Below, piece after piece: positions 1 to 30,073 of a DNA stretch of 32,574 bases. Origin of the DNA: a virus (taxonomy: Duplodnaviria; Caudoviricetes); the IMG/VR virus record IMGVR_UViG_3300030708_001735, positions 1 through 32,574 of that record. One strand, given 5' to 3'. A program made the translations under genes and the position numbers. Numbering within the stretch: the first letter of the stretch is position 1; each line of letters begins with the position of its first letter. The notes beneath the pieces are model-generated. The model saw only the letters and a program-made list of their open reading frames with translations. It had not been told where the DNA came from and made no database searches.

Positions 1-169
1 TAAAAGTATCAGAAAAAGGGGGTGGGGGCAACCCAATGAAAATACCTCCAAATAAATTTATCAAACTAGCATTTTATGTGTGTACTATGCAAAGGCCCGC
101 CCGATTTCGGGGGTATGGCCTAAAATATTTTATAAATGTCATAATGAAAATGGCAAAGTTACCCGCAAT

Positions 170-203
170 AAAAAAGGCGGGAAATAATCCCGCCTTAATT
201 TTT
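170..203. terminator. Intrinsic terminator, probably bidirectional, ending the leftward early operon
   Basis: Stem AAGGCGGGA (174-182), loop AATAA, TCCCGCCTT (188-196). A-run on the left (U-tract for the minus strand) and T-run on the right; just downstream of the ORF ending at 219. Confidence 0.8.
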
Positions 204-218
204 CTACGATCGTAAAGT

Positions 219-482
219 TTAATCGTGATAAGTTTTGAACCAGTCTTTTTCTGCATTAATTAAATGGCCATATTTAAGAATGTCATTCTTATACATATCT
301 CCATATTCCCAGCTATCATAAGTCATCGGAGATTTTGCCGCAGTAAACCAAATATCATATTGGCTAGTTTCATTACTAGCCATTTTATATGTCTTAAGTA
401 TTCTATAAGTAATACTACCAGCCTGATATTCTGCGTATGGTTTATCTAAGTTTCTGGTTTTACCAAATAAGTTTTTAGTCAT
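219..482 (-). CDS. Phage hypothetical protein (87 aa)
   Basis: GGAGG SD upstream; TAATG coupling to the previous ORF; NLFGKTR..DKPYA..ILKTY..KSPMTY.SWEYGD pattern recalled from phage early proteins. Confidence 0.75.
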   Translation of the reverse strand: MTKNLFGKTRNLDKPYAEYQAGSITYRILKTYKMASNETSQYDIWFTAAKSPMTYDSWEYGDMYKNDILKYGHLINAEKDWFKTYHD

Positions 483-652
483 TATTTAACCTCCATTACT
501 GGCCATATATGTAATAGTTTAATTTCAAAAGGCATTGAATGCAGAAAATAACTTACTGCATCCCTTGCCTCTTGTTCATTTTCTGCATCGATCGAATAAA
601 ATAATTTTCCGTCTACGCCTTCTATAGTTATTTCAAATTTATATTCTTTCAT
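482..652 (-). CDS. Hypothetical protein (56 aa, MKEYKFEITIEG...WPVMEVK), not in the ORF track
   Basis: Translated by hand. GGAG SD at 661-664 (minus); exactly fills the gap between neighbours, with TAATG overlap. Confidence 0.75.
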   Translation of the reverse strand: MKEYKFEITIEGVDGKLFYSIDAENEQEARDAVSYFLHSMPFEIKLLHIWPVMEVK

Positions 653-653
653 T

Positions 654-932
654 TTATTTACTCCATATAGTTTTAGTTATTTCATATTCGTAAGCAGGTA
701 CTTTCCTATATTGGCCAGTACCTACCTTTTCAACAATGCCTTTATTTTCTGCATTCTTAAAATGAGATTTTTTTAAGCTGTTGAATTTATTAAAAACCTT
801 ACTAATTAAAGTATGGTTTTTCTCATTAAGTGGAATGTTTTCCACGTTAATACTTTCAATAGTTTTCACCAATTGAGATAGTGAAACTTTTTTAGTCTTA
901 TATTTAGTAATAGTTATTACTTTATTTTCCAT
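654..932 (-). CDS. Basic hypothetical protein, first gene of the leftward early operon; possibly DNA-binding
   Basis: GGAG SD; Lys-rich; GIVEKVGTGQYR resembles a winged-helix wing (weak inference). Confidence 0.7.
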   Translation of the reverse strand: MENKVITITKYKTKKVSLSQLVKTIESINVENIPLNEKNHTLISKVFNKFNSLKKSHFKNAENKGIVEKVGTGQYRKVPAYEYEITKTIWSK

Positions 933-958
933 AATGTTTTACTCCATTGTAATTGTCT

Positions 959-980
959 TATGTAGTCTTAAGACTACATA
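959..980. promoter_or_regulatory. 22-bp perfect palindrome, operator-like
   Basis: TATGTAGTCTTAAGACTACATA is its own reverse complement. It carries two copies of a motif that recurs at the other early promoters. Confidence 0.7.
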
Positions 981-1014
981 GGAAATAAGGCATAAATAAG
1001 GCAAGTTATAACTT

Positions 1015-1046
1015 TTTTATAGCTGGTTTTTATAGCTGGTTTTTAT
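1015..1046. repeat. 13-bp tandem repeat (TTTTATAGCTGGT, about 2.5 copies)
   Basis: Read directly; a 14-bp palindrome ATAGCTGCAGCTAT follows at 1099-1112. Confidence 0.75.
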
Positions 1047-1118
1047 TTCCAGCAGCTTAAATTATTAATAATATATTGATTATATATGTTAGTTATATAT
1101 AGCTGCAGCTATCCAAGG

Positions 1119-1269
1119 CCCGAAATCCCGAAATCCCGAAATCCCGAAATTTTAAGGCCTGGGGCCTGGTGTAATTTTAAAGAATATATTATTATATTAC
1201 ATTATATTATATTTAGGCCTGGCACCCGAAACCCGAACCCGAACCCGAATCCGAACCCGAACCCGAAAT
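1119..1269 (+). repeat. Two CCCGAA arrays flanking an AT-rich core
   Basis: CCCGAAAT x4 (1119-1150) and seven (C/T)CCGAA units (1225-1267). The AT-rich core at about 1172-1214 is bracketed by AGGCCTGG on both sides. Confidence 0.9.
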
Positions 1270-1285
1270 AAATATTATTAAAAGT

Positions 1286-1314
1286 TTGCATTATATAACA
1301 ATATCGATTAGACT
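1286..1314 (+). promoter_or_regulatory. sigma70-like promoter of early operon 2
   Basis: TTGCAT-17 bp-TAGACT; predicted start near 1321 (GACAATTACATGAGG). Confidence 0.6.
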
Positions 1315-1343
1315 ATATAGGACAATTACATGAGGTATTTAAA

Positions 1344-2009
1344 ATGCTAACAACTACAAAATATAAAAAATCTATTCATGATTTAAATAATTATGATCAT
1401 GACATAGTCAAAAATAGTACAAATATTAAAATTGGAAAAAAAGTAACTAAAGGCCAATATTTAAATTACTTGTTTAAAACTGTTACTTTAATTGAGCGGG
1501 AAACATGCCCGCCTGATTGCGTGCATTGGAATGATTGCTATGGCAATAATATGCCATTCGCACATCGTATTAGTCATAAAGATCAAAATTTATTACAAAA
1601 AAGAATTTATAACGAATTATTAAATTCAACTAATAAATTATTATTAATTCGCTTGCACGTCCTGGGCGATTTTTTCAATGTTAAATATGTTAAATTCTGG
1701 TCTATAATGTTAAATACATTCAAGAATATTGCTATTTATGGGTATACAGCAAATAATATTAATTCAAATTTTAAAATTTCCAGGGATATTGCAAAGGCCA
1801 TTATTAAACTAAATTATAATAAACATTCACATATAAGATTTAGTAATGATTTAACAAATAATTTTTCCGCAAATTCTTATGACATAGTAAAACCAATAAA
1901 AGGTAAATCTATATTGTGTCCAGTACAAGAAAATAAAACCGCAAATTGTGGAACATGCGGTTTATGTTGGAATCAAAAAAATCAATCAATAATATTTAAA
2001 ACTCATTAA
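1344..2009 (+). CDS. Gp88-like Cys-rich phage protein (possible Fe-S / radical-SAM-like)
   Basis: TCPPDC.....CYG, IRLHVLGDFF, YGYT, IRFS, CP.Q.....CGTCGLCW and terminal F..H motifs. Confidence 0.65.
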   Translation: MLTTTKYKKSIHDLNNYDHDIVKNSTNIKIGKKVTKGQYLNYLFKTVTLIERETCPPDCVHWNDCYGNNMPFAHRISHKDQNLLQKRIYNELLNSTNKLLLIRLHVLGDFFNVKYVKFWSIMLNTFKNIAIYGYTANNINSNFKISRDIAKAIIKLNYNKHSHIRFSNDLTNNFSANSYDIVKPIKGKSILCPVQENKTANCGTCGLCWNQKNQSIIFKTH

Positions 2010-2023
2010 AGAAAGGTAAAACA

Positions 2024-2227
2024 ATGGCATTTACTAATTACAAATATAAAAAAATGACATTTAAGGACGCAGAACAAATTATTGCAAATGTTGTAGAATC
2101 TGCTTTTTTAAATGCCAGGGATATTGACGAAGAAGAGGCCAAGGAAATTGACCAGGCCTCGGAAATTTATTTTGAGAAAGTAAACAATCTTTTAAATAAG
2201 GAAATAGACAATGACAAAACCAAGTAA
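2024..2227 (+). CDS. Hypothetical protein
   Basis: AAGG SD; operon position. Confidence 0.7.
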   Translation: MAFTNYKYKKMTFKDAEQIIANVVESAFLNARDIDEEEAKEIDQASEIYFEKVNNLLNKEIDNDKTK

Positions 2228-2465
2228 AAAAGATTTAGAACAAATTAAAACAGCGTTAGAAGATAACGCTGCAGATATTACTGTTCATGAATTATTTGAT
2301 CGGGTTATTAATGATTGGAAACTTACAAATTTATTTCCTCATGATAACCCCGAACAAGGCGACAAAGATTTATTAGAAAAAATTTATGTTGAATATCTTA
2401 TGAAAGATTTAAGTAAACTATCAAAAGAAGAATTAATTGCTGAAAGGTGGATATATGAAGAATAA
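2211..2465 (+). CDS. Hypothetical protein
   Basis: AAGGA SD; overlaps its neighbours. Confidence 0.7.
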   Translation: MTKPSKKDLEQIKTALEDNAADITVHELFDRVINDWKLTNLFPHDNPEQGDKDLLEKIYVEYLMKDLSKLSKEELIAERWIYEE

Positions 2466-2679
2466 ATTAGGTGAAGACATTTTAACAGATGAAGAAATAG
2501 AAGAGTTAAAAGAATTAGGAAAGGCAATCGAGGGTACCCTGGTGTTTGGTGATCCTGGCGGGGATGGATACCCAAGCAGAACAAATAGATTTGAATTATT
2601 AAAAATGTTTAAAAGATATTTAGAAATTCATGATTATAAAATAGTTAAAGATAAACCACCTTATGATATGTTAGAATAG
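2455..2679 (+). CDS. Hypothetical protein
   Basis: Start moved to ATG 2455 after AAGGTGG; ends at the terminator. Confidence 0.65.
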   Translation: MKNKLGEDILTDEEIEELKELGKAIEGTLVFGDPGGDGYPSRTNRFELLKMFKRYLEIHDYKIVKDKPPYDMLE

Positions 2680-2697
2680 GCCTCAGGCCTATTTTTT
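2675..2697 (+). terminator. Intrinsic terminator
   Basis: AATAGGCC-TCA-GGCCTATT followed by a T-run, between convergent genes. Confidence 0.7.
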
Positions 2698-2710
2698 ATT
2701 ATTCCAACAT

Positions 2711-3145
2711 TCATTGTCCATTATCATTATGAGCTAGTGTTATTGATTCCAGGTGCTTGATCCCCGACTCCCGAATCGCCCCGAAAATGTCCCCGAATCC
2801 CGAACCCGAAACCTTGATTATAGGCTCCATGGTTAGTCCATCTACGGCCAATTGCCGAGCATCCTCGCCCCGAAATAAAAATAGGCTACCCTCCCCGACC
2901 CGTTGAACCAAGATGTACGATAACCCTTTTTTGAGCCAATGCTTAGTATTCCAGGCTATTTGATTTGAAGATAACTTGATTTTGTTAGCCTTGGTTATCT
3001 TAAGTTCTAGCCAAAAAGCTAGTCCATCCCATATAATATAGACATCAGGCACACCACTAGCTATTCGATTTTCAATTCTTGTAGCATAACAATCGTTAGG
3101 TAAATTTTTTTTAACTCTTAGCCAAAGATTTTTTTCGGTCGTCAT
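2711..3145 (-). CDS. PD-(D/E)XK nuclease, VRR-NUC / Holliday-junction-resolvase-like
   Basis: E..LW...K, RIEN....GVPDV, WLELK and LSSNQIAW motifs. Start reassigned to MTTEKNLW (3145), overlapping the end of terS. Confidence 0.8.
   Translation of the reverse strand: MTTEKNLWLRVKKNLPNDCYATRIENRIASGVPDVYIIWDGLAFWLELKITKANKIKLSSNQIAWNTKHWLKKGLSYILVQRVGEGSLFLFRGEDARQLAVDGLTMEPIIKVSGSGFGDIFGAIRESGIKHLESITLAHNDNGQ
2763..2810 (+). repeat. CCCGAA cluster embedded in coding sequence
   Basis: Five CCCGAA and one CCCGAC in 48 bp, on the same strand as the arrays at 1119-1269. Confidence 0.8.
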
Positions 3146-3632
3146 CTGTAACTGTTTTATAATCGCCCTCGATAAACACCTGGGGATATTGTTTTTGTAA
3201 ATCAACAAGTCGAGCTACAATCTCATCCCTGGACAAGTTATCAAGAGTATGGACATTTTCTCTTCGATCAGTAGTCAAACCACCTAATGCACTTCGAATT
3301 TTTTCTGCATTGACGGATGCACTATATTGACCTTGTTGCTCTGCTCCATGACTTAATTCATGAAACCTTTTAAGCTGACCCATCAATGTGACACCATATT
3401 TTCTTTCTCGTAGTTGTCTTAACTCTTCAATATATTCGACAACATGAGGATATTCTCTTGCATTTAACATCCTGGATGCATGAACTTTAGCAGATCTTTC
3501 ATTGTATCCGCTACGAATAGCACATTCTTTATTGGTATAAATGCCCTCGACATATAGCTCTGCAAAGGTTTTCTGTCTGTTGGTCAAAAGTCTGTTATGA
3601 TTTTTTTCAATTTTAAGAATAGTTTTCTGCAT
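3111..3632 (-). CDS. terS: Terminase small subunit
   Basis: LTNRQKTFAELY...ECAIRSGY..RSAKVHASRML...P.V..YI.EL, the typical N-terminal HTH of TerS. Confidence 0.85.
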   Translation of the reverse strand: MQKTILKIEKNHNRLLTNRQKTFAELYVEGIYTNKECAIRSGYNERSAKVHASRMLNAREYPHVVEYIEELRQLRERKYGVTLMGQLKRFHELSHGAEQQGQYSASVNAEKIRSALGGLTTDRRENVHTLDNLSRDEIVARLVDLQKQYPQVFIEGDYKTVTDDDRKKSLAKS

Positions 3633-3703
3633 GAGTTTATTTATAGAATAATTTTGAAAGATTTGTAAAACAAAAAAAACAAAAACGTCATTGCGTCACA
3701 TTG

Positions 3704-3858
3704 AAGTGTTATAAACGTTATAAATTAAGAGAGAAGTGTTATATAAATATTTGACTGTATATATACGTTATAGATTAATTTGTAACACTTATAACACTTA
3801 TAACACTTAATTTGAAACTTTTTTTATAAAAGTGAAATCTTTCTGAGTAGTGTTATAA
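3704..3858. repeat. Cluster of direct and inverted (AAGT)GTTATA repeats upstream of terS
   Basis: AAGTGTTATA at 3704 and 3734; ACGTTATA at 3715 and 3765; inverted TAACACTTA x3 in tandem (3783-3809); AGTGTTATAA at 3849. Confidence 0.85.
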
Positions 3859-3877
3859 GTAACTCAAATATTATTAC

Positions 3878-3906
3878 TTGTGTCCTATGTAGTATTATGG
3901 TAGGTT
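3878..3906 (+). promoter_or_regulatory. sigma70-like promoter of early operon 3
   Basis: TTGTGT-17 bp-TAGGTT with extended TGn; the operator-like GTCCTATGTAGT (3882-3893) overlaps the -35 end and the spacer. Confidence 0.55.
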
Positions 3907-3935
3907 TAATTAAATTTAACCACATGGAGATTAAT

Positions 3936-4238
3936 ATGACGTTTTACTCTACACATCCATCAATTAATATTGATGTTAAAATTCCTGGAGATTGGGATAA
4001 CATATCTTATCATCATGATATTTGTCCTAGTTTCAAGGTCAAAGATTTACAGATCTTTGTTATGGATGATCAGACTCGTGACGAAGAAGAATTTGATCAC
4101 AAATATACGATTATGTCTGAAGAGAATTATGGCGATGACAAACCGCCTTTTCTAGCTACAAATTCCTGGGACGAAGTATTAACATTCGTATCTTTATATA
4201 AATCTTTAACTAAGGGGAAAGACAATGCAGATAAATAA
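3936..4238 (+). CDS. Hypothetical protein
   Basis: Start moved to ATG 3936 after GGAG; W.NISYHHD.CPSF motif. Confidence 0.75.
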   Translation: MTFYSTHPSINIDVKIPGDWDNISYHHDICPSFKVKDLQIFVMDDQTRDEEEFDHKYTIMSEENYGDDKPPFLATNSWDEVLTFVSLYKSLTKGKDNADK

Positions 4239-4743
4239 ATTAGAACTTAAAAACATTACTTACTATAAACAAGGATCTGAAGAAACACCTTGTTATAATG
4301 CAGTTGTTTATGTGAATGGTAAAAAGGCCATGCATGTAGGCAATGATGGTCGAGGTGGATGTGATCGTCAACTTCATGAATATCCTACTTTTGATCATAC
4401 ATTAATTAATAAACTAAATGAGTATTGTGTTAAGACATTTGGTGTTAGAAAATATGATTGGGGTCAAGTTGACATTGATCTTGAACATTGGTGCCATGAT
4501 AGACTATACGAATTTCTTGATAAAAAAATACTTAAGAAAGAACTTCAGAAAAAATATCTTTGTGTCATGCAAGACGATTATAAGGACGAAAGATTTTTAG
4601 TTTCCTGGAAAAGAAGAGGTAAGGATTTTGATGAATCTTTTCAAAAGTATTTAGTTGCTAAGGAGCCTGACCTGGTAGGTAAATGTTTAAACTTTTTACC
4701 ATTCGATAAGGCCTGGAAAATTTATGAAGAGGTAACATCATGA
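4225..4743 (+). CDS. Phage hypothetical protein
   Basis: LKNI.....SEET.C..A..YVNGK.....NDG.GG pattern recalled from phage early proteins; AAGGGG SD. Confidence 0.8.
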   Translation: MQINKLELKNITYYKQGSEETPCYNAVVYVNGKKAMHVGNDGRGGCDRQLHEYPTFDHTLINKLNEYCVKTFGVRKYDWGQVDIDLEHWCHDRLYEFLDKKILKKELQKKYLCVMQDDYKDERFLVSWKRRGKDFDESFQKYLVAKEPDLVGKCLNFLPFDKAWKIYEEVTS

Positions 4744-4931
4744 AAGAGATAGACTATTATTACTATGACCATGTTTATGGAGAGGGTGGCCGTTTAGGAA
4801 ATTTTGGAAAGTTGATGGATTTTATCGACAATGCTTATGACAAAGATAGACACACGATTCAAGATTCCTGGGAAAGTCACATACAAGTTTGCGAAGAAAA
4901 TGATAATCCAATTGAAGAGGTAACATTATGA
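4740..4931 (+). CDS. Acidic hypothetical protein
   Basis: GAGG SD; ATGA coupling. Confidence 0.7.
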   Translation: MKEIDYYYYDHVYGEGGRLGNFGKLMDFIDNAYDKDRHTIQDSWESHIQVCEENDNPIEEVTL

Positions 4932-5122
4932 ATAGAATAGATAAATTAGTTGAGATTTATAATAAGTGGGGACATGCTAATGGCATCTCCCCATTGCCTA
5001 GTGCCGATGATCTAAGGTTCGATGGTCTAAATGGTCGCAGAAATTTGACCAACATACAAATTCAATGGCTCGACAGATTCTGCCGAGCTTGGGACATAAC
5101 TCAATGCAGAGGGGATAAGTAA
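4928..5122 (+). CDS. Hypothetical protein
   Basis: GAGG SD; ATGA coupling. Confidence 0.7.
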   Translation: MNRIDKLVEIYNKWGHANGISPLPSADDLRFDGLNGRRNLTNIQIQWLDRFCRAWDITQCRGDK

Positions 5123-5265
5123 TGAAATATTTTATTTATGATTTTAATGGAGTTTTATTATTTAAAAAAGGTTTTAACACTTATCAACAAGCATTTGATT
5201 TTTGTTTAGATAAATTCAAATTCGATGAAGAAATGGATGAGATAATAATCAAAGGAGAAAAGTAA
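5122..5265 (+). CDS. Hypothetical protein (47 aa, MKYFIYDFNG...IIKGEK), not in the ORF track
   Basis: GAGGGG SD; TAATG overlaps at both ends. Confidence 0.7.
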   Translation: MKYFIYDFNGVLLFKKGFNTYQQAFDFCLDKFKFDEEMDEIIIKGEK

Positions 5266-5480
5266 TGGGTAAAGTAAAGCAAATGATGATGGATCAAGAA
5301 GTTGAGTTTTGGGACAAGGCCTTATCAACTATGTTGGAATCCGAAACTCGAAACGAATTTGTATCAAAGATGATGCCACACTTTCATTTAATGCGACCGA
5401 TGTCAGATCAAGATATCATGGGAGAATTGTCTGATGGCTGGGATGATCATCAATCTAATTATGCAGAGGAGAATAAATAA
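5265..5480 (+). CDS. Hypothetical protein
   Basis: AGGAG SD; TAATG coupling. Confidence 0.75.
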   Translation: MGKVKQMMMDQEVEFWDKALSTMLESETRNEFVSKMMPHFHLMRPMSDQDIMGELSDGWDDHQSNYAEENK

Positions 5481-5761
5481 TGAAGTATTATCATGCAACT
5501 ATAGAAGAGCATCATGGAGAATTTGTTACTCATGAATCAATATTGATTGCTACTGAAAAAGATGGTTATCAAAGACATGAAGAGATTACTAAAGATTGGT
5601 ATGGTATAGACGTTGATGAAGACCCTGACAAAAAGGGTGTTTATTGGAATGATTGCATGACCTATCAAAGTGGTTATTTTAGTGAAATTTCTAAAAAATG
5701 TTTTGAAGAGTTAAACAAAAAAACCTCTATTACGGCTTTCTTTGATGAAGAGGAGAGTTGA
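5480..5761 (+). CDS. Acidic hypothetical protein
   Basis: GAGGAG SD; TAATG coupling. Confidence 0.75.
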   Translation: MKYYHATIEEHHGEFVTHESILIATEKDGYQRHEEITKDWYGIDVDEDPDKKGVYWNDCMTYQSGYFSEISKKCFEELNKKTSITAFFDEEES

Positions 5762-5970
5762 TAATGTTGACAATCAGAAGATTAATTAATGAATTAAAAG
5801 ATTATCCAAGTGATACAAGAATAGATTTTATACTCCTGAATAAAAATTGGGAAGATAGCACTAAGGATACTTATTTAAATGTTAAAGGTGTCGTAGGTAG
5901 TGGCGAAGCTGAAGACGGAAGAGAATACGTTGAATTAGGATTAATGTTGTTTAAGGAGAATAAAAGATGA
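5758..5970 (+). CDS. Hypothetical protein
   Basis: GAGGAG SD; start is either TTG 5758 or ATG 5764. Confidence 0.7.
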   Translation: MIMLTIRRLINELKDYPSDTRIDFILLNKNWEDSTKDTYLNVKGVVGSGEAEDGREYVELGLMLFKENKR

Positions 5971-6122
5971 AAAACACCTGGGCATATATTTATGGGGATG
6001 AATGTGATGATTTATGGGATCATTTCGGAATGTCAGATCGTAACAATAATGATCGTATGAAAATTAAGTTTGTTGAGTTTGAATCTGAAGAGGAGCAAAA
6101 GGAGAATCATAATGAAACTTGA
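5967..6122 (+). CDS. Hypothetical protein (51 aa, MKNTWAYIYG...ENHNET), not in the ORF track
   Basis: AGGAG SD; ATGA coupling; translated by hand. Confidence 0.7.
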   Translation: MKNTWAYIYGDECDDLWDHFGMSDRNNNDRMKIKFVEFESEEEQKENHNET

Positions 6123-6393
6123 TGAGTTATGGCAAAAGCCTGATTTTAGAAAAGTAGCACTTAAATACTATCATAAATATTTGAAAGACAGAATCCAGGC
6201 TGACGATAGGCATGATACATGGGGGTCTTTTCAATATAAAAATTGGTGGTATGATTTGAATCTTTTTATCGATGAAGATGATTCTGCGGTTCGAGATTGT
6301 ATTTATAACGTAGAGATAAACAGTAATGGCGATCTACAAACGGGCGAAGATTATCTTGTAATAACTGAACCTGATGGAAAAATTATTACATGA
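6112..6393 (+). CDS. Hypothetical protein
   Basis: Start moved to ATG 6112 after AGGAG. Confidence 0.75.
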   Translation: MKLDELWQKPDFRKVALKYYHKYLKDRIQADDRHDTWGSFQYKNWWYDLNLFIDEDDSAVRDCIYNVEINSNGDLQTGEDYLVITEPDGKIIT

Positions 6394-6394
6394 C

Positions 6395-6423
6395 TTGACC
6401 AACAAATTTATAGTCAATATAAC
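6395..6423 (+). promoter_or_regulatory. sigma70-like promoter of the putative small RNA
   Basis: TTGACC-17 bp-TATAAC; also contains the inverted repeat TTGAC-N13-GTCAA. Confidence 0.55.
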
Positions 6424-6427
6424 TATT

Positions 6428-6515
6428 ACCATCTGCATATCTCCATGTAATTGTCAGTACATTATGCAGTTTTGGTTAGGAAAAAGAGCTAGGATAATTT
6501 CTTAGCTCTTTTTTT
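6428..6515 (+). ncRNA. Putative trans-acting antisense small RNA (~85 nt) targeting early-operon leaders
   Basis: Own promoter and terminator, and no credible plus-strand ORF. Stems CUGCAUA/UAUGCAG and AUGUA/UACAU. 10-15 nt complementarity to the leaders of the genes starting at 932(-), 1344, 3936 and 6611. Confidence 0.6.
6481..6515 (+). terminator. Strong intrinsic terminator, possibly bidirectional
   Basis: AAAAAGAGCTAGGA-TAATT-TCTTAGCTCTTTTTTT. Confidence 0.85.
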
Positions 6516-6524
6516 ATTTTCTTG

Positions 6525-6553
6525 TTGAAATTCATTTAAATAAATATTACATT
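6525..6553 (+). promoter_or_regulatory. sigma70-like promoter of early operon 4
   Basis: TTGAAA-17 bp-TACATT, followed by operator-like ACTACATGGGAC (6556-6567). Confidence 0.6.
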
Positions 6554-6610
6554 AAACTACATGGGACTAAACAATTAGTCTTTAACTAACCTAACCAAAA
6601 GGAGAAAATC

Positions 6611-7051
6611 ATGGGTTTAGATATGTACTTAGTCGGTCATCATTATCATACTGCTTATAAGGATGATACTCCAAGACCAAAATTAGATAATAAATATAAT
6701 ATAGAGTCGATGAAAATTGACCTGGGTTATTGGCGAAAGCATGCAGATCTGCATGGTTATATTGTGGATACCTTTGCTAATGGCGAGGATAACTGCATGG
6801 AAATAGATCTAACTGAAGCTGATTTAGATCAAATTATTTTAGCGATTCAAAATGATGATTTAAAAAAAGATCATTCGGGATTTTTCTTTGGTAATTCAAC
6901 CGAGTTTGGATATTATAAAAAGGAAGAAAAAGATCGTGCAATTGCATTATTTCAAAGAGCAAAAACCTTTTTGCAAGAGGGTGCTAAGATGTGGAAAGAT
7001 TCAGATTTATTTATGAATCCAAGGCATGTAACTTATAGAGCATCATGGTAA
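6611..7051 (+). CDS. Phage hypothetical protein (MGLDMY...YWRK family)
   Basis: MGLDMYL, YWRKHADLHGY, GFFFG and terminal Y.ASW motifs; AGGAG SD. Confidence 0.85.
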   Translation: MGLDMYLVGHHYHTAYKDDTPRPKLDNKYNIESMKIDLGYWRKHADLHGYIVDTFANGEDNCMEIDLTEADLDQIILAIQNDDLKKDHSGFFFGNSTEFGYYKKEEKDRAIALFQRAKTFLQEGAKMWKDSDLFMNPRHVTYRASW

Positions 7052-7272
7052 GTTCAATGAAAGTAATATTTGAAACTGAAGATGCAAGGTTCGTGATCCC
7101 TAGTGGAAAAGAGCCTTACATCGAAGTTCGGTGTTATGAGTGTGGGGGTCATGGATATACTCCCACACAAAACGACTTACTGAACTGTAAGACTTGCAAT
7201 GGCAATGGATCAATATTTTACAATGACAATGGAGATGTAAATGAATCAAGTTATAGAGTTACAATCGTATAA
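7045..7272 (+). CDS. Small zinc-finger protein (DnaJ-type CxxCxGxG x2)
   Basis: CYECGGHG...CKTCNGNG; start may be 7057. Confidence 0.7.
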   Translation: MVSSMKVIFETEDARFVIPSGKEPYIEVRCYECGGHGYTPTQNDLLNCKTCNGNGSIFYNDNGDVNESSYRVTIV

Positions 7273-7708
7273 TTACGTACCAATCCAACAAACATATGAC
7301 AGAAATGCGGTGCTGAACAAAATGGTCGGCACTCATTTTTTTGGATCTATTGATGGTATATCTTTAGAAGAGCTATCTGAAATATTTGGCACACCGATAT
7401 ATAGTGATGACAATAAAACCAATGTGCAATGGTTAATAGAATTTGAAGATGGATTATTAGCTACCATCTACGATTACAACCAGGACATCAAAGACATCAA
7501 AAGTGAAAAAGTAATTTGGTGTGTAGGTGGCCATGATATAAGGGTTATGGATCGTGTTTATAAGCTGACAAAGATAGATCATAAAATGACTTATCACCAG
7601 GCATTAGTAACGATAGAAAAAGCGATGCTAATGATGAAAAGCCGTAACGTCCCGTTTAACTATGACCGACTAAATTTAGCCTGGTCAAAGATTCAGCGAG
7701 GTGTGTGA
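7241..7708 (+). CDS. Phage hypothetical protein
   Basis: GGAG SD; KT.VQW...F.DG..ATIYD....W.VGG motif. Confidence 0.8.
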   Translation: MNQVIELQSYNYVPIQQTYDRNAVLNKMVGTHFFGSIDGISLEELSEIFGTPIYSDDNKTNVQWLIEFEDGLLATIYDYNQDIKDIKSEKVIWCVGGHDIRVMDRVYKLTKIDHKMTYHQALVTIEKAMLMMKSRNVPFNYDRLNLAWSKIQRGV

Positions 7709-7881
7709 TGTCAGAACAAGATTTAATTAATTTTAAAGATGGGACTTATGATGCTTTGATGTATGGCATCAGAAGTGAAACCAATAAATCACATTATTAT
7801 AAACAAGGATATGACTTTGGATTAGTTTTGTATAATGATCAAATAAATGAGGTGCAAGATGACATTTCAAAAAAGAATTAA
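7708..7881 (+). CDS. Hypothetical protein (57 aa, MSEQDLINFKDG...ISKKN), not in the ORF track
   Basis: GAGGTG SD; TGATG coupling; YYKQGYDFG motif. Confidence 0.7.
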   Translation: MSEQDLINFKDGTYDALMYGIRSETNKSHYYKQGYDFGLVLYNDQINEVQDDISKKN

Positions 7882-8074
7882 TCATTTACGATGCTTGTAT
7901 GAAGAGCATGACAGATTAACAAATACATCCAAGGACAAGATTGCAGATGCCGAGTATCGTGGTGTGATGTTAGGTCTTGATATGGCCATGGATCTATCCG
8001 AATCAATAAAGGAATTTGAAGCTGACATTAAAAAAATCAGGGGCAAAGGTTCCAGGAGTTGGTGGCATGTTTAA
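7859..8074 (+). CDS. Hypothetical protein
   Basis: Start moved to ATG 7859 after GAGGTG. Confidence 0.65.
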   Translation: MTFQKRINHLRCLYEEHDRLTNTSKDKIADAEYRGVMLGLDMAMDLSESIKEFEADIKKIRGKGSRSWWHV

Positions 8075-8267
8075 AGCGATGGCTCTTATTTGTAGTGTTT
8101 GGATTGTAAATGGCAAAGCTGAACAACAATGCTTTACACACATGTTTAAATGGGAATTTGAATCACAAAAAGAATGTGAATTAAAGTTAGTTCGTTACAG
8201 AATTTACGAGCTACCCAAAAATCAAAAAATAATTTTAGATGATTGTATTAGGGTAAAAAAGTCCTGA
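8067..8267 (+). CDS. Small Cys-containing protein with hydrophobic N-terminus
   Basis: Start moved to ATG 8067 (MFKAMALICSVW) after AGGAG; four Cys. Confidence 0.65.
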   Translation: MFKAMALICSVWIVNGKAEQQCFTHMFKWEFESQKECELKLVRYRIYELPKNQKIILDDCIRVKKS

Positions 8268-8288
8268 TTTCCAGGTACAATCATACAC

Positions 8289-8338
8289 GGGGGTAGTTTT
8301 ACCCCCACTCTAAGGCTCTTAAATCGAGCCTTTTTTTT
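8289..8338 (+). terminator. Tandem hairpins / intrinsic terminator at the early-modification convergence
   Basis: GGGGGTA-GTTT-TACCCCC (8289-8306), then AAGGCTC-TTAAATC-GAGCCTT with a T8 run (8312-8338). Confidence 0.7.
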
Positions 8339-8795
8339 CCATTATCCAACAAAATTTAGGTTCAATAGATGCAGATTGGAATTCTCGTCCTGGTCTAGTT
8401 AGCCATCCTTTATGTTTATTTATTTCTACTTCATGCAATATTTTCCACCCCGAACCCCGAAGACTTGAACCACTTTCTGATTTCAAGGTATAAGTTATAA
8501 TTTTACGACCACCCATTGCTCTCCAAGCTCGCCAGGCACTAGCATATAAAAAACTATTTGTTCCTTTAGGTGCTGATTCCAGAATACAACATCTAGTAAC
8601 TTCAGCAGTAAACCCATCTTCTTTATGTCTTGATATTGGTCTACCTACGATAACAACACCGATAAGCTGATCTCCATCCGAGCAGCCAATACAAAATTTA
8701 CAACCTTGCACGGGTTTGTTATGTCTGTGGTAAGTTGATACAAACTCATTTGCATGAGCAAGTGTTATAGGTACGGCTTGTATTTTAGTCATCAA
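8319..8795 (-). CDS. XF1762-type / Mom-like GNAT-fold protein (putative DNA-base acyltransferase)
   Basis: PITL..AN.FV..YHRH.KPV, GV.IVGRP.SR..EDG.T.EVTR, SFLY..AWRA.RAMG..KIITYTL.SESG.SLR.SGW. Confidence 0.7.
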   Translation of the reverse strand: MMTKIQAVPITLAHANEFVSTYHRHNKPVQGCKFCIGCSDGDQLIGVVIVGRPISRHKEDGFTAEVTRCCILESAPKGTNSFLYASAWRAWRAMGGRKIITYTLKSESGSSLRGSGWKILHEVEINKHKGWLTRPGREFQSASIEPKFCWIMEKKGSI

Positions 8796-9471
8796 TCAAA
8801 CTCAACTGTTTTGTTTTTCTTTCATTCCAACGAATAGGACATTGAACTGAATCTATTTCTCTCGCCATTTTTTCAGGACATCTTTTACTGCTTTTATAGT
8901 TTCGAGATACATTGACCGAATCAGCAGATGCAAATGGATAATGTTTGCCTGTCATGTTTAACCCTCTCAACATATGTATCCAGGGCAGAGTTTTAAATTT
9001 TCTATCCAACATATTAAAAGCCTCATTGACTCGCTCTTCCCAGGATCTAGACCCGACTTGCCAATATTGTCCGCTGCTCCCGAAACAAACCTTTGGATAA
9101 TTTTCACACAAATACACTAGGTAATCCAGACCAAGATGCAAATGCCAGACGGGTACCCCAAAGTAATTAGGATATGGCCAGGTATTTAAAAATTCTTTAT
9201 TTTGTTTTTCGTCACCCCCGATAACATCTGGTATAACTGCCCAATGTGGATGACCAAGTTTATCTTGTAACCAATCGTAATATGCCTGATGATCAAACAC
9301 CTTACCACTTGTATAGGTAGTAAAAGCACCATTGTCCCACATGACACTTTGTCCTATTTCCAAGCATATTTTTGCATCCCTAGAATCAGCAAAGGAAACA
9401 CAAAAGTGTTTCCCTGCCATTTTGTATAGGTTCTCCTTTGGTGTCAAAGGTGTGCCATGATAGTGTATCAT
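8785..9471 (-). CDS. dpdA: TGT-fold DpdA-like 7-deazaguanine DNA transglycosylase (divergent, 228 aa)
   Basis: Ordered motifs DNGAF, PDVIG, PVWH, IHMLRG and SADS parallel the TGT/DpdA DSGAF..D..PVxH..H..G..SxDS series; adjacent to yhhQ and QueF-like genes. Confidence 0.7.
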   Translation of the reverse strand: MIHYHGTPLTPKENLYKMAGKHFCVSFADSRDAKICLEIGQSVMWDNGAFTTYTSGKVFDHQAYYDWLQDKLGHPHWAVIPDVIGGDEKQNKEFLNTWPYPNYFGVPVWHLHLGLDYLVYLCENYPKVCFGSSGQYWQVGSRSWEERVNEAFNMLDRKFKTLPWIHMLRGLNMTGKHYPFASADSVNVSRNYKSSKRCPEKMAREIDSVQCPIRWNERKTKQLSLIDD

Positions 9472-9704
9472 TTAGATATAACCTTAACCCCCAAATGATC
9501 TGATGTTAATTTAACAGAATCGAATCTTGACTTTAATATTTCAAATAAATCCTCTTGAAACATTAGTTGGTTGTAAATTCTTTTTTGAATTTTAACAAAC
9601 TCTTCGACTTCGATTATTGCATCTGAATTTATTTCAACATCATAAATATTTACAGATTCATCATTTGGACATCGACACACTAACTTAAACTGATAAAGGT
9701 GCAT
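9468..9704 (-). CDS. Minimal QueF-like (QueF-L-type) T-fold protein, 78 aa
   Basis: CP near the N-terminus, IEVEEF, FQED and C-terminal GV.V strand match the QueF/QueF-L layout from memory; the NADPH-binding E(S/L)K(S/A)hK motif is absent. Confidence 0.6.
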   Translation of the reverse strand: MHLYQFKLVCRCPNDESVNIYDVEINSDAIIEVEEFVKIQKRIYNQLMFQEDLFEILKSRFDSVKLTSDHLGVKVISK

Positions 9705-10176
9705 TTCTATTCCTTAAATAATAGTAGATAACAACTGCAGCTAACATCTTGCTAATAAACATTGTCGCACAAGCAAGTATACTAAACTGTCCAATCATGG
9801 CTAAAAATACTGCACTATCAATTGGTGTAGATACTAATGAACTTATAAGGATTCGTTGATGCAGAGGCTTACCTGTAAATGTGTACACACCCCAATCTGT
9901 AAGTTCTGAAATCATAAATGCTACAAATGATGCAACGGCAATAAATGGATTGGCCATAACATAACTTAGTATGGCACCTATAACCATAGCTCCTATTACT
10001 TTGTGTCCTATCTCTCGTTGTGCATAATCCCGAAGTATAAATATTACACCCACGATAATACTCATTGGTGGATACATGGTATCATAAAAAGGTATTAGTG
10101 GTACGTAAACAAATCCTACGTTAATTAATACCACAGATAAAATATAAGCGATCGTAAATTTATATTGATTTAACAT
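9685..10176 (-). CDS. yhhQ: VUT/YhhQ-family queuosine-precursor (preQ0/preQ1) transporter
   Basis: Multiple TM segments; F.LRD..QR..G, IAVASFVAF.ISEL.D..VY, R...S..VSTPIDS.VF. Confidence 0.85.
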   Translation of the reverse strand: MLNQYKFTIAYILSVVLINVGFVYVPLIPFYDTMYPPMSIIVGVIFILRDYAQREIGHKVIGAMVIGAILSYVMANPFIAVASFVAFMISELTDWGVYTFTGKPLHQRILISSLVSTPIDSAVFLAMIGQFSILACATMFISKMLAAVVIYYYLRNRNAPLSV

Positions 10177-10193
10177 TGTATTCTCCTTTGTTA

Positions 10194-10343
10194 TTATTCG
10201 TCTTCTTCAAATTCAAATTCGATAAAGAATTCATCATCGTCATCTTCAAGCACATTTGTAGATGGTTTGATGTTTTTTAATTTTTGTTTGGCCTGGTTAA
10301 AATTTATAACATTGTCTTCTGTTTTGGGTCTATTTTCAGCCAT
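10194..10343 (-). CDS. Small protein with very acidic tail (49 aa), not in the ORF track
   Basis: GGAGAGGAGG SD inside the 3' end of the helicase gene; MAENRPKTEDNVINFNQAK...LEDDDDEFFIEFEFEEDE. Confidence 0.7.
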   Translation of the reverse strand: MAENRPKTEDNVINFNQAKQKLKNIKPSTNVLEDDDDEFFIEFEFEEDE

Positions 10344-11785
10344 TGTCTTGCCTCCTCTCCTAATACTTTAGCACCAATGTCAATCTTATTTTTCAGAGCC
10401 TTGACAATCTTTTCGTCAATTGTGCTCTCAGTAATAAGATCTATATATGTTACCTTGTTGGTCTGACCGATACGATGACATCGATCTTCAGACTGCATTC
10501 TAGTTTCAAGATTAAAATCATTTGCATAGTAAACAACAGTATTCGCCTGGTTCAAAGTAATACCATAACCAGCGGTCGATGGATTACCCACAAAGAATCT
10601 CATAGGATTATCTGGATCTTCAAAGGCCTCGATAACTCGAACTCTTTCGTCCTGGGGTGTGTCGCCATAGTATGTCCCGACTGTTTCTTTGCCATATAAA
10701 GTTTCAAGTTTATTTTTTATTGTAACTATATCGTATCGGAATCTGGAGTAGATAAGTATCTTACCTGACACTTCATCACATATGTTTAGTAATTCAGTTA
10801 ACCTATTAGTTTTAAACTCTATTGTGTTACCCTCATCTGTTTTAAGATGTCCTGATAATATCTGCTGCAATCGTAACATTTGTGTTATGATCATGGGTGC
10901 AGTTACAGTTGAAGCTACGTCAAGTAACAAGATAGCTTCTTTTTGTATCTTGCTATACATTTTCTTTTGATCATCGGTAAGTTCAATAAAACGTGTTGTG
11001 TAAATTTTATCAGGTAAGTCAATACAATCTTTTTTCAACACTCTGTATATATATGGATCTATCTTATTAAGTAATTCGTCTAATCTTTTGTATCCAACAA
11101 TCTGCTGAAAGGTATGAGATCCAAGACTCCTTTTTAAAATGTTTGCATGACGATTAAGAAAAGCATAGTAACTTTTAAAATTTAAGATCCCTGGGTCAAG
11201 GAACTCGAACTGTGACCAGAGGTCCAATGGCGATTTGGTTACAGGTGATCCTGTAAGTAAACGTTTATATGCAAACCCCCGACCTATTTTTATCAGTGAT
11301 TTAGTTCGTTTAGCTTTATGATTCTTAATTGTTGTTGACTCATCTATGGCTATAAGTCCCCGACCTCCGAACTTCTTAGCCATCCAATTACCCGCTTTGA
11401 TCCCACGTGCACTAGAAAAAGCCTCAACATTCATAACAAATATTCTCATGGCCGTTGTTGAGATTTTAAAAAATTCATTTAATTTTTTTTCATACATTTT
11501 ATTTGTATTTGACTGCCAATAAAGTAATTTATGTTCTATATTATCTGACAGATGTGTAGGTATTTCTTTTTGCACCCAGTTACGATAAACACCTTTTGGA
11601 GCTAGTATTAATACAAAATTTATTTTTTTTTCATGCCGCAACCAGGCAATATTATCAATAAGCACTTTAGATTTACCTGTACCCATTTCCATAAAAAACC
11701 CAAAGAGTCCCATGTCTTTCGCTTTATCCAATGCATCTAATTGATGTTTATATGGTTTAGTTTTAATTATGTGGTTGACATTCAT
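10304..11785 (-). CDS. SNF2-family (SF2) helicase
   Basis: EMGTGKS, DES, LTGSP, GITL and QSEDRCHRIGQ motifs. Confidence 0.92.
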   Translation of the reverse strand: MNVNHIIKTKPYKHQLDALDKAKDMGLFGFFMEMGTGKSKVLIDNIAWLRHEKKINFVLILAPKGVYRNWVQKEIPTHLSDNIEHKLLYWQSNTNKMYEKKLNEFFKISTTAMRIFVMNVEAFSSARGIKAGNWMAKKFGGRGLIAIDESTTIKNHKAKRTKSLIKIGRGFAYKRLLTGSPVTKSPLDLWSQFEFLDPGILNFKSYYAFLNRHANILKRSLGSHTFQQIVGYKRLDELLNKIDPYIYRVLKKDCIDLPDKIYTTRFIELTDDQKKMYSKIQKEAILLLDVASTVTAPMIITQMLRLQQILSGHLKTDEGNTIEFKTNRLTELLNICDEVSGKILIYSRFRYDIVTIKNKLETLYGKETVGTYYGDTPQDERVRVIEAFEDPDNPMRFFVGNPSTAGYGITLNQANTVVYYANDFNLETRMQSEDRCHRIGQTNKVTYIDLITESTIDEKIVKALKNKIDIGAKVLGEEARQWLKIDPKQKTML

Positions 11786-11803
11786 TAATCACTCCTATAT
11801 CTT
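11775..11803 (+). promoter_or_regulatory. sigma70-like promoter of the replication operon
   Basis: TTGACA-17 bp-TATCTT, overlying the helicase start codon and SD. Confidence 0.65.
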
Positions 11804-11805
11804 CC

Positions 11806-11833
11806 AATATAAACATAAATAAAATAATTTCAA
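11806..11833 (-). promoter_or_regulatory. Possible promoter of the helicase/modification operon
   Basis: TTGAAA-16 bp-TATATT on the minus strand. Confidence 0.4.
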
Positions 11834-11861
11834 CCTAAAACCTGAAGAGGAGATACTTTAA

Positions 11862-12419
11862 ATGGCTGAAGAAATTTTTGAAGAAATGTTTGATGATACA
11901 ACGCTTGATAAAATTGAGGAAAATACAATGAAAAGTTTGTCTTCCTTAGTTAAAGAAGTTGATCAGCTTACAACTGAAATAAATGAAAAAGAACAAGAAT
12001 TGAAAAAACTTAAAACTGCTAAGTTGAAAATGTCCACTGAACAAATACCTAGTTTAATGGATGAGATGGGTATTCAACGTTTAGATGTAGAAAATTTAAG
12101 TGTGAGTTTAAAACCATTTGTTAATGCAAGTATACCACCGCATAGAAAAGAAGAAGCCTACAGATGGTTAAGAGATAATGATCTTGATGATATTATAAAA
12201 AATGATGTCATCATTTCATTTGGTAAGGGAGAGGATAACATGGCTGGGGACATTATGTATGATCTTGAGCAACGTGGTATGCATCCCGAGAAAAAGACAC
12301 ACATTCACTCAATGACACTAAAAGCATTCATTAGGGAACGTGTTGAGAAAGGTTTACCAATAGATCTTGATTTGTTTGGTGCCTTTGTAGCAAGAACCAC
12401 TGACATTAAAAGGAGTTAA
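11862..12419 (+). CDS. Replication-module protein of unknown function (N-terminal coiled coil)
   Basis: IP.LM.EMG, WLR.N...DIIKN and H..TLKAF.RE motifs, recalled as typical upstream of SSB-like genes in such phages. Confidence 0.75.
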   Translation: MAEEIFEEMFDDTTLDKIEENTMKSLSSLVKEVDQLTTEINEKEQELKKLKTAKLKMSTEQIPSLMDEMGIQRLDVENLSVSLKPFVNASIPPHRKEEAYRWLRDNDLDDIIKNDVIISFGKGEDNMAGDIMYDLEQRGMHPEKKTHIHSMTLKAFIRERVEKGLPIDLDLFGAFVARTTDIKRS

Positions 12420-29188: not shown

Positions 29189-30073
29189 CTAATATTTAAT
29201 TGATTCTACAAAAGTAAATATGCTTCCATTTTGATTTATTGCTATTGCAAAAGATACAGAACTACCAAGACTTACACCTTGTGAGTTAGACGGATAACTT
29301 AAAGTTAATGTATTAGATGAACTTGTTTTATCCACAATTATATACTGGCCTATTGCCAAACTACCTATCGCTAAAGTTAAAGCTACGTTATTACTTGATG
29401 TATCAACCTTTTGATATATTGATTGAGCAGAAGATGGTGTAAGCGTGGCTGATGAAGATGTTATAGCACTTGGCACTGTTACAAGATTTGCATTGAAGTA
29501 TGTAGAAAATGTAGCGGCAGTGGTCTGTCTCATTGTGCCACCATCATTCGTTACAATACCATCTCCATCTGCAACTGCGGTTGTTCCAGCACTTGTGCCA
29601 CCATCCATGAGATTTAGTTCTGATGCTGTTGCAGTTAATTTAGTACCACCAAAAGTTAAGCTATCTAATAAGTCTACAACCGCTGCACCAGATCCTGCAC
29701 CATCTGCATATATTAAGGCTTTTGCACCAGCAGGCACATTCACATTACCACCAGATCCTTGTGTAAATGTAGCAGTTTGACTTGTGCTATTGTGAACAAA
29801 GAACATTTTATCTTGATCATTTGGAGATATAGTAATTGTGTTTGTACCAGACGGAGATCCACCTAATACTAAAACTTTATTGCCACCTTCGGATAATGTA
29901 CCATCACTAGTTGTTAATGTGTGACTTGTACCAGATAAGGTTATAGCTCCTACACCATTAATGGCTCTATCTAGTATATCTAAGTTGTTGTTGGTCGTTG
30001 TACCCCATGTACCAGCTTGTTCACCAGCACCTATCTTTTCAACTCCTATGTTTGATGTATATGTACTTGCCAT
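29189..30073 (-). CDS. Tail fibre protein
   Basis: MASTYT....GEQAGTWG..TN.N N-terminus; ATASELN.MDG repeat-type motif. Confidence 0.65.
   Translation of the reverse strand: MASTYTSNIGVEKIGAGEQAGTWGTTTNNNLDILDRAINGVGAITLSGTSHTLTTSDGTLSEGGNKVLVLGGSPSGTNTITISPNDQDKMFFVHNSTSQTATFTQGSGGNVNVPAGAKALIYADGAGSGAAVVDLLDSLTFGGTKLTATASELNLMDGGTSAGTTAVADGDGIVTNDGGTMRQTTAATFSTYFNANLVTVPSAITSSSATLTPSSAQSIYQKVDTSSNNVALTLAIGSLAIGQYIIVDKTSSSNTLTLSYPSNSQGVSLGSSVSFAIAINQNGSIFTFVESIKY

Follow-up and report, generated by a model that had tools for sequence, protein, structure and literature searches.

Genome context and layout of the locus

The DNA analysed here (hereafter the window, 32,574 nucleotides) is a linear virus record of 32.6 kb that is 56% complete and has a G+C content of 35%. 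It encodes a small terminase, SNF2 and UvrD helicases, a primase, and a family A polymerase, together with a queuine transglycosylase-like gene, a lysozyme, and podovirus virion genes. The nearest cultured or complete records are 023Pt_psg01, DSL-LC04, HTVC023P, and HTVC027P, whose polymerases are 47–55% identical to that of the window (41% for the next record), and the same four rank first in a search with the small terminase. Based on the polymerase identity, we assign the phage to the HTVC023P-type marine phages; its family A polymerase, primase, helicase, and terminase are all closest to those of HTVC023P/HTVC027P. This type has been reported as the most abundant pelagiphage group, and HTVC027P is described as obligately lytic and devoid of an RNA polymerase of its own (PMC12753301). 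The genome collections checked for a host contained two binned contigs, whose bins belong to different phyla or classes, and thus yielded no usable host.

The recombinase search of relatives, which covered tyrosine integrases (PF00589), found none in four of four related contigs, two of them 92% and 100% complete, and was positive for 14 of 14 controls. No antirepressor, repressor, or integrase was seen among the 51 proteins of the window, itself 56% complete.

Four runs of small genes flank the small terminase gene, namely, 932–219 on the minus strand, 1344–2679, 3936–6393, and 6611–8267. Their gene size, position, and host-type promoters suggest that all four are early. No function was found for the proteins encoded by the candidate target genes described below, except for a GP88-like match of gene 1344.

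The element under study starts directly behind the stop codon of the third run (Table 1). The preliminary description had placed a promoter, TTGACC-17-TATAAC, and a strong terminator here, and both are recovered at these positions. Consensus promoter matches mean little by themselves, as 75 promoter-like sites were found in the window against 76 expected, and the site at 6395–6423 misses the last-T rule of that scan; the support for this promoter is therefore its conservation. TTGACC precedes 24 of 24 family matches, although the search pattern did not contain it, and its distance to the RNA start is 26–27 nt across 18 distinct upstream contexts with differing upstream genes. No terminator is predicted between the 3936–6393 operon and the RNA. 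Judged by conservation, the element has its own promoter, an intrinsic terminator, and no conserved open reading frame, as trans-encoded small RNAs do.

Two side observations concern this promoter. None of the four types of the RNA described below has the last T of the −10 box, and the promoters of early genes differ in this respect; the RNA's promoter may thus be weaker or factor-dependent. Such a −10 box may point to an alphaproteobacterial host. An inverted repeat overlaps the promoter (6395–6417), with 5 bp in the window and 7 bp in the related loci L076 and L049, and is confined to type A.

The predicted fold of the candidate RNA has a z-score of −6.3, a value reached by none of 200 shuffles. 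As had been proposed, the bulged UCUCC and the loop AUUGUCAG are unpaired in this fold. The claim that the second complementary segment (seed 2) is single-stranded does not hold if the RNA starts at A6428, as positions 6473–6476 then pair with 6428–6431. In two metatranscriptomes with small shares (0.07 and 0.05), the assemblies, which drop short RNAs, cover short pieces of positions 1–12000 and none of 6001–6800.

Table 1. Predicted features of the candidate RNA locus, its candidate targets, and related elements. Coordinates refer to the window unless a locus is named.
Feature	Coordinates	Strand	Evidence or remarks
Predicted sigma-70-type promoter TTGACC-17-TATAAC	6395..6423	+	−35 at 6395–6400, 17-nt spacer, −10 at 6418–6423; the upstream gene's stop codon directly precedes it
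Candidate small RNA, 88 nt	6428..6515	+	start inferred from the conserved basal stem; 11 distinct homologues
Anti-Shine-Dalgarno (anti-SD) segment, UCUCC bulged	6439..6445	+	unpaired probability about 0.9
Apical loop, putative specificity seed	6450..6457	+	complements GACAA that opens early leaders; changed jointly with leaders in type D
Seed 2 / linker	6470..6480	+	complements the 6611 leader in types A–C only
Predicted intrinsic terminator	6479..6515	+	also the first predicted terminator past the 3936–6393 operon
Candidate target, leader of gene 932(-), first of leftward operon 932–219	942..957	-	complementarity, leader ranking
Candidate target, leader of gene 1344 (GP88-like), first of operon 1344–2679	1321..1332	+	complementarity, covariation
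Candidate target, leader of gene 3936, first of operon 3936–6393	3922..3931	+	complementarity, covariation
Candidate seed-2 target, leader of gene 6611, first of operon 6611–8267	6590..6600	+	complementarity
Likely secondary target, ribosome site AUGGAGAU of internal gene 7241	7229..7236	+	leader ranking, AUGGAG survey
Possible secondary target, AUGGAG ribosome site of internal gene 652(-)	661..666	-	AUGGAG survey
AUGGAG ribosome site of gene 482(-)	491..496	-	predicted binding weak
Promoter-proximal DNA motif ACTAYATRDGAC, copy 1	1312..1323	+	also in relatives
Promoter-proximal DNA motif ACTAYATRDGAC, copy 2	955..966	-	forms half of a perfect palindrome of 20 nt at the promoter of gene 932
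Promoter-proximal DNA motif ACTAYATRDGAC, copy 3	3882..3893	-	in inverted orientation within the predicted promoter of gene 3936
Promoter-proximal DNA motif ACTAYATRDGAC, copy 4	6556..6567	+	one of four copies in the window
Compact anti-SD elements of sister phages	L116:233-283, L125:679-730, L123:804-862, L404:2449-2502(-), L435-L446		no Rfam match

Homologues and conservation of the fold

Pattern and protein searches returned 60 locus entries, many of them repeat entries of a contig, which comprise 11 distinct RNAs of four types, A–D; one pattern search found 9 relatives among the 100 loci listed, and in two further searches most matches were due to chance. In the terminase tree, the carriers of the RNA form one supported clade (97/99), with type D sister to types A–C and type A nested.

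All types share a basal stem, an anti-SD bulge of 5–6 nt, a short inner stem, a loop containing UUGUC, and the terminator. The anti-SD core CUCCAUGUAA shows no change in 11 of 11 distinct RNAs, while position 6440 is U in the RNA of the window and C in the other types. In an alignment fitted to the proposed structure, 242 of 242 cells are paired and 4 of 22 pairs have changed at both positions; one of these belongs to the 5′ stem, the others to the terminator (3 of its 11 stem pairs); plain RNAalifold on an unfitted sequence alignment missed the 5′ stem. The covariation score of the fold is 0.217, compared to 0.03–0.05 with slid partners, whereas the pair count by itself is not significant (54 of 500 shuffles). 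The four basal pairs, which lie outside the model, add one more double change, from ACCA/UGGU to ACUA/UAGU in type D. The plus strand folds better than the minus strand in 11 of 11 variants and has 2–4 G-U pairs. Taken together, these comparisons make a conserved structured non-coding RNA element at this locus well supported.

The preliminary description did not recognise the RNA as a member of a described family, and indeed Rfam gave no match at the locus in the window up to an E-value of 5, nor at two type D and three compact-form loci up to an E-value of 1. A model of the long form (R1), a model of the compact form described below (R2), and a blind search for similar elements found no homologue in the first 30 kb of HTVC023P, HTVC027P, and 023Pt_psg01 or in the first 45 kb of DSL-LC04; the best R1 match in these stretches (E 0.03) is terminator-like. 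Nor did R1 find a long-form homologue among 70 terminase loci at 59–68% identity, many of them short.

Complementarity to the leaders of early operons

Each of the four pairings that had been claimed is present in the sequence. The complement is 12/12 nt for the leader of gene 1344, 10/10 for that of gene 3936, and 11/11 between seed 2 and the leader of gene 6611; for gene 932(-) it comprises 10 contiguous nucleotides at 948–957(-), or 15 with one bulge. The length of these complements alone is unexceptional, as the longest in the window (13 nt) falls in a late coding region (29699–29711) and two further 11-mers sit in coding sequence. It is their placement at leaders that is exceptional. When 51 gene starts are ranked by the longest perfect run, the four named leaders occupy ranks 1–4 (12, 11, 10, and 10 nt), followed by a run of 8 nt. 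Their summed run of 43 was reached by none of 2000 dinucleotide shuffles and by none of 2000 shuffles that kept the anti-SD segment; the corresponding counts for the summed energy are 0 of 2000 and 1 of 2000. Among all 63,798 segments of 55 nt on both strands, the RNA locus scores best with 43, the next separate locus has 35, and the mean is 22.7. The ranks by duplex energy are less clean (1, 3, 7, and 31 of 51), and the net co-fold gains of the four leaders are modest, from −5.3 to −9.7 kcal/mol.

A search for anti-SD elements linked to a terminator, made blind to their sequence, returned the RNA in the window and in the related loci L052, L137, and L313, with four leader matches of 9–14 nt in each of them. 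The complementarity ends close to the predicted start site, and the ACTACA of the promoter lies outside it. Thus the element has, as is typical of small regulatory RNAs, a short, exposed, and conserved seed complementary to several unlinked mRNAs.

Gene 11862, a replication gene proposed as a further, weaker target, was rejected. Its match is a run of 7 nt with a co-fold gain of −2.9 kcal/mol, compared to the range given above for the four leaders, and it is probably not a target.

A putative sequence tag on early genes

The preliminary description had noted that every strong target is the first gene of an operon; the set of targets seems broader than that, as internal early genes also match the RNA through AUGGAG. 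In a survey of ribosome sites, for which genes were called by a simple script and the boundaries of the early region were drawn by hand, AUGGAG precedes 5 of 25 early-region genes of the window and 0 of 26 others (p 0.02), and in the near-complete genome of the relative G001 8 of 20 and 0 of 59, respectively (p 5e-6). The 16S rRNA tail reads CCUCCUU. The AU ahead of GGAG fits the CUCCAU of the RNA and not this tail, and replication and virion genes lack AU before GGAG. Since AUGGAG is enriched at early genes and matches the invariant CUCCAU, internal early genes are likely targets too. In most relatives of types B/C, gene 7241 has AUGGAGGU as its ribosome site.

The GAC of the seed target is at the same time the end of the motif ACTAYATRDGAC common to the four promoters. 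This motif is possibly the operator of a regulator or a start-site motif, and may form a control layer parallel to the RNA.

A separate arrangement was observed in L125 (795–830) and in L078 and L130–L135 (leftward operon), where the fold of some early leaders places AUGGAGG in a hairpin loop just ahead of the start codon. Such leaders would permit loop-loop kissing with the anti-SD RNA.

Joint change of the RNA and the leaders

The preliminary description had named compensatory change between the RNA and its leaders as a check, and such change is found in type D, where it is complete for the orthologues of gene 1344. The type D seed is lengthened from AAUUGUC to AAAAUUUUGUCUUA, and the promoter-proximal leaders of type D open with UAAGACAAAA instead of GACAAU. 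The leaders of gene 1344 orthologues in types A–C pair over 11–13 nt with their own seed and over 6–7 nt with the D seed (6 of 6 leaders), and those of type D over 12 nt with the D seed versus 5–6 nt (2 of 2). Over all leaders, 9 of 9 distinct ones of type D pair better with the D seed and only 19 of 26 of types A–C prefer their own, a comparison that tilts to the D seed because this was tested in a longer version (25 versus 21–22 nt). The 932 leader of one type B genome does not differ from a type D leader. As the covariation of RNA and leaders comes from two branches of the terminase tree, the leaders, though many, do not represent independent events.

A finer correspondence involves position 6440. 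In four genes picked after inspection of 13 (4225, 5265, 6611, and 7241), U at this position (type A) is accompanied by GGAGA in 6 of 6 distinct leaders, and C (types B/C) by GGAGG in 15 of 22. For gene 3936, 7 of 8 leaders have GGAGA irrespective of the type of RNA; for gene 5265, GGAGG occurs in none of the 6 leaders from type D.

Between seed 2 and the leader that follows it, the complement spans 8–11 nt in 7 of 7 type A–C pairs and 6 nt in 3 of 3 type D pairs; in type D, both seed 2 and its matching leader sequence are gone. The orthologue of gene 6611 was not found in L137. On the basis of these pairings, we regard seed 2 as a lineage-specific extra and not a part of the core. As a side observation, the 6611 orthologue of L052 (10159–10583) seems to be frameshifted, being covered by two tblastn pieces.

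A compact element in the sister clade

Sister phages, whose small terminases are about 60–64% identical, carry a different, compact element of approximately 55 nt, in which a hairpin that exposes CCUCCA in its loop precedes a strong GC-rich terminator (Table 1). It always lies immediately ahead of CCCGAA repeats, and the one loop is held by three unrelated stems. In genome G002, AUGGAG precedes 5 of 16 early genes and 4 of 70 other genes (p 0.01). Model R2 has no match in the window, L137, or L313, leaving the homology of the long and compact forms unproven; since neither model finds the other form, the compact one may be convergent.

Several compact elements have palindromes upstream. L123 contains a second candidate (150–235), a stem around UUCUCCAU followed by a terminator, with a weak match to the long-form model (E 0.08–0.25). 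In L369, a variant hairpin with a UUCUCCAAU loop occupies the corresponding syntenic position (approximately 10846–10950, minus strand).

Proposed role and alternative explanations

The preliminary description interpreted the locus as a trans-acting RNA antisense to the early leaders, with immunity, lysis-lysogeny, or an early-to-late switch as possible roles. Conservation, strand-specific structure, covariation, and the loss of the rival reading frame speak for such an RNA. A lysis-lysogeny role was rejected: it is unlikely because no tyrosine integrase was found in the four relatives, and the cultured relative HTVC027P is described as obligately lytic (PMC12753301).

We consider it reasonably probable, from the sequence comparisons, that an RNA with a promoter of its own starts to pair with early mRNAs at their 5′ end and ribosome site and blocks initiation, resulting in a delayed shut-off. 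The host polymerase would transcribe the 88-nt RNA from this promoter; the 3′ end of the upstream operon transcript may be a second source of it. Two contacts would form, one between the exposed UUGUC of the loop and the GACAA with which early mRNAs are predicted to begin, the other between the bulged UCUCC and the GGAG ribosome site; the pairing could then zip through the weak inner stem into a duplex of 10–17 bp. Such a duplex would block ribosome entry, and early protein synthesis would be wound down. A stable RNA made beside the early mRNAs would accumulate with a lag, turning early translation into a pulse, and selectivity would come from the AU before GGAG, which favours the RNA over the 16S tail.

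The same RNA and the same pairing might instead serve to shut off the early genes of a related, co-infecting phage (superinfection exclusion) or to keep starved hosts in a quiet carrier state, and not to time the lytic cycle. This would suit the divergence of seed and leaders between types as lock and key; moreover, C4 of P1/P7 belongs to an immunity system in which a 4-nt change in the specificity region matters (PMC5320573), and the transcripts of HTVC027P are reported to rise only after about 3 h (PMC12753301). We nevertheless regard it as unlikely, since types A–C cross-pair nearly equally, no tyrosine integrase was found in the four relatives, and the RNA, lying among early genes with a similar promoter type, would therefore be made in every infection. 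Very unlikely, in our estimate, is that the pairing is real but not trans-repressive, with the RNA either shielding the 5′ ends of early mRNAs from decay or acting mainly in cis, as the 3′ end of the 3936–6393 transcript that folds back on its own leader. The complement does extend to the predicted mRNA 5′ end, and no terminator is predicted between the operon and the RNA; however, the invariant core spans the ribosome site itself, the best targets are on other transcripts and on the other strand, and the element has a conserved promoter of its own.

Two further explanations dispense with RNA pairing. The locus could be a DNA site bound by a protein, or a promoter-leader cassette copied in inverted orientation, with an ordinary terminator beside it; recombination or a shared DNA-binding regulator would keep it similar to the other copies. 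The ACTAYATRDGAC motif is indeed common to all four promoters, and the minus strand of types A–C resembles a leader in that 8 nt separate GGAG from ATG, a hint that the locus arose by inversion. On the other hand, the RNA locus has no ACTACA, the upstream part of the motif, which argues against a mere DNA copy; the conserved stem places exactly the complementary bases in the bulge and the loop in all types; the G-U pairs favour the plus strand; the plus-strand promoter keeps a fixed distance behind different upstream genes; and the sister clade also exposes CCUCCAU, in a different fold. We therefore consider this explanation highly improbable. The same minus-strand GGAG and ATG could also belong to one more early-leader copy that leads into the gene of a small protein. 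The frame, which had been given as 28 codons, is actually 34 codons long in the window, and it is not conserved across types: it has 34–38 codons in type A, 6 in type B, and 18 in type C, while type D lacks the ATG. Furthermore, the terminator stem cuts it off from upstream minus-strand transcription. This largely refutes a minus-strand protein and leaves it a negligible probability.

Relation to known systems

The P4 CI RNA and the C4 RNA of P1 were the analogues named initially. In C4 of P1/P7, one segment occludes the ribosome site and the other binds upstream for specificity (PMC5320573). The likeness to C4 stands for this predicted mode of action, whereas the structure, model, and context of that family are not found here. 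Like C4, which acts in trans on mRNA of its own phage (PMC5320573), the candidate would be a phage RNA of approximately 80 nt with two exposed segments; according to prediction and covariation, its bulge and loop pair with GGAG and the upstream GACAA. Unlike C4, the candidate does not match the Rfam covariance model. C4 has three stem-loops (P1–P3), whereas the candidate is one bulged stem-loop plus a terminator. C4 is processed by RNase P from a longer transcript and has a GG 5′ end; the predicted start of the candidate is ACYA, behind its own promoter. C4 controls an antirepressor in temperate-phage immunity, while no antirepressor, repressor, or integrase was found among the proteins of the 56% complete window. 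The candidate RNA would target several operons and a class of genes, in a phage that is probably lytic.

In T4, the RegB nuclease shuts off early mRNAs by cutting GGAG ribosome sites and spares late ones (PMC3014915). RegB is a protein with S1 as a cofactor, whereas here an RNA would discriminate the class by base pairing. The start-associated sequences SAS/ESAS of cluster K mycobacteriophages are an extended ribosome-site motif before non-structural genes, for which 16S pairing gives no explanation and whose authors left open an RNA or protein partner (PMC3203893). As here, a DNA repeat lies upstream of SAS/ESAS, and one copy is in reverse orientation (PMC3203893). Sequence and host group differ from the present case, in which the reverse copy is combined with a predicted promoter and terminator, a fold that is conserved, and covariation. 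The cuckoo RNAs of Alphaproteobacteria expose a CU-rich anti-SD-like sequence on hairpins with variable stems (PMC4615179) and are closest in shape to the compact sister-clade element. They are host-encoded and consist of 2–4 adjacent hairpins with CCUCCUCCC loops, while the candidate has one bulged CUCCAU and a second seed; neither the 2–4 CCUCCUCCC hairpins nor an Rfam match was found.

Known phage RNAs control single phage genes in temperate switches, or host genes (PMC12197685). Titles and opening lines of abstracts from literature searches describe neither the candidate RNA nor a phage RNA that silences the early genes of its own phage as a class; the same applies to the part of the 2025 review considered here, which separately tabulates 38 uncharacterised phage RNAs (PMC12197685), and the accessible part of PMC9599517 does not mention a small RNA.

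A broader proposal, which we put forward tentatively and rate somewhat below an even chance, is an early-to-late switch of a lytic phage by an RNA that mimics the 16S tail. It would read a tag of AUGGAG and GACAA that the ribosome does not need, coevolve with this tag as lock and key, and silence the whole class; with the neighbouring clade doing likewise through another hairpin, it could represent a recurring, RNA-only counterpart of RegB within a marine phage group that ranks among the most abundant. To our knowledge, the shut-off of early genes in lytic phages without an RNA polymerase or sigma factor of their own is mostly unexplained. If true, timing control in phages of the HTVC023P type would gain a new layer, in which a single RNA recognises early mRNAs by a shared tag, and the unexplained mycobacteriophage start-associated sequences would have a concrete model. 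The natural RNA-leader pairs of types A and D form a ready-made compensatory set, so the proposal could be tested with reporters without culturing the phage.

Other features of the region

Tandem CCCGAA repeats form clusters at 1119–1267 and 2770–2810, on either side of the 1344 operon, and are retained in relatives down to approximately 60% protein identity. An AT-rich non-coding stretch at 3690–3860, with repeated AAGTGTTATAA/TTATAACACTT units, adjoins the small terminase gene at a position conserved in relatives and is a candidate packaging site or origin. On the minus strand, positions 8319–10176 hold a DNA-modification cluster with a Mom-like protein, a queuine tRNA-ribosyltransferase-like protein, and a Vut_1 transporter; several relatives have methyltransferase-like genes in its place.
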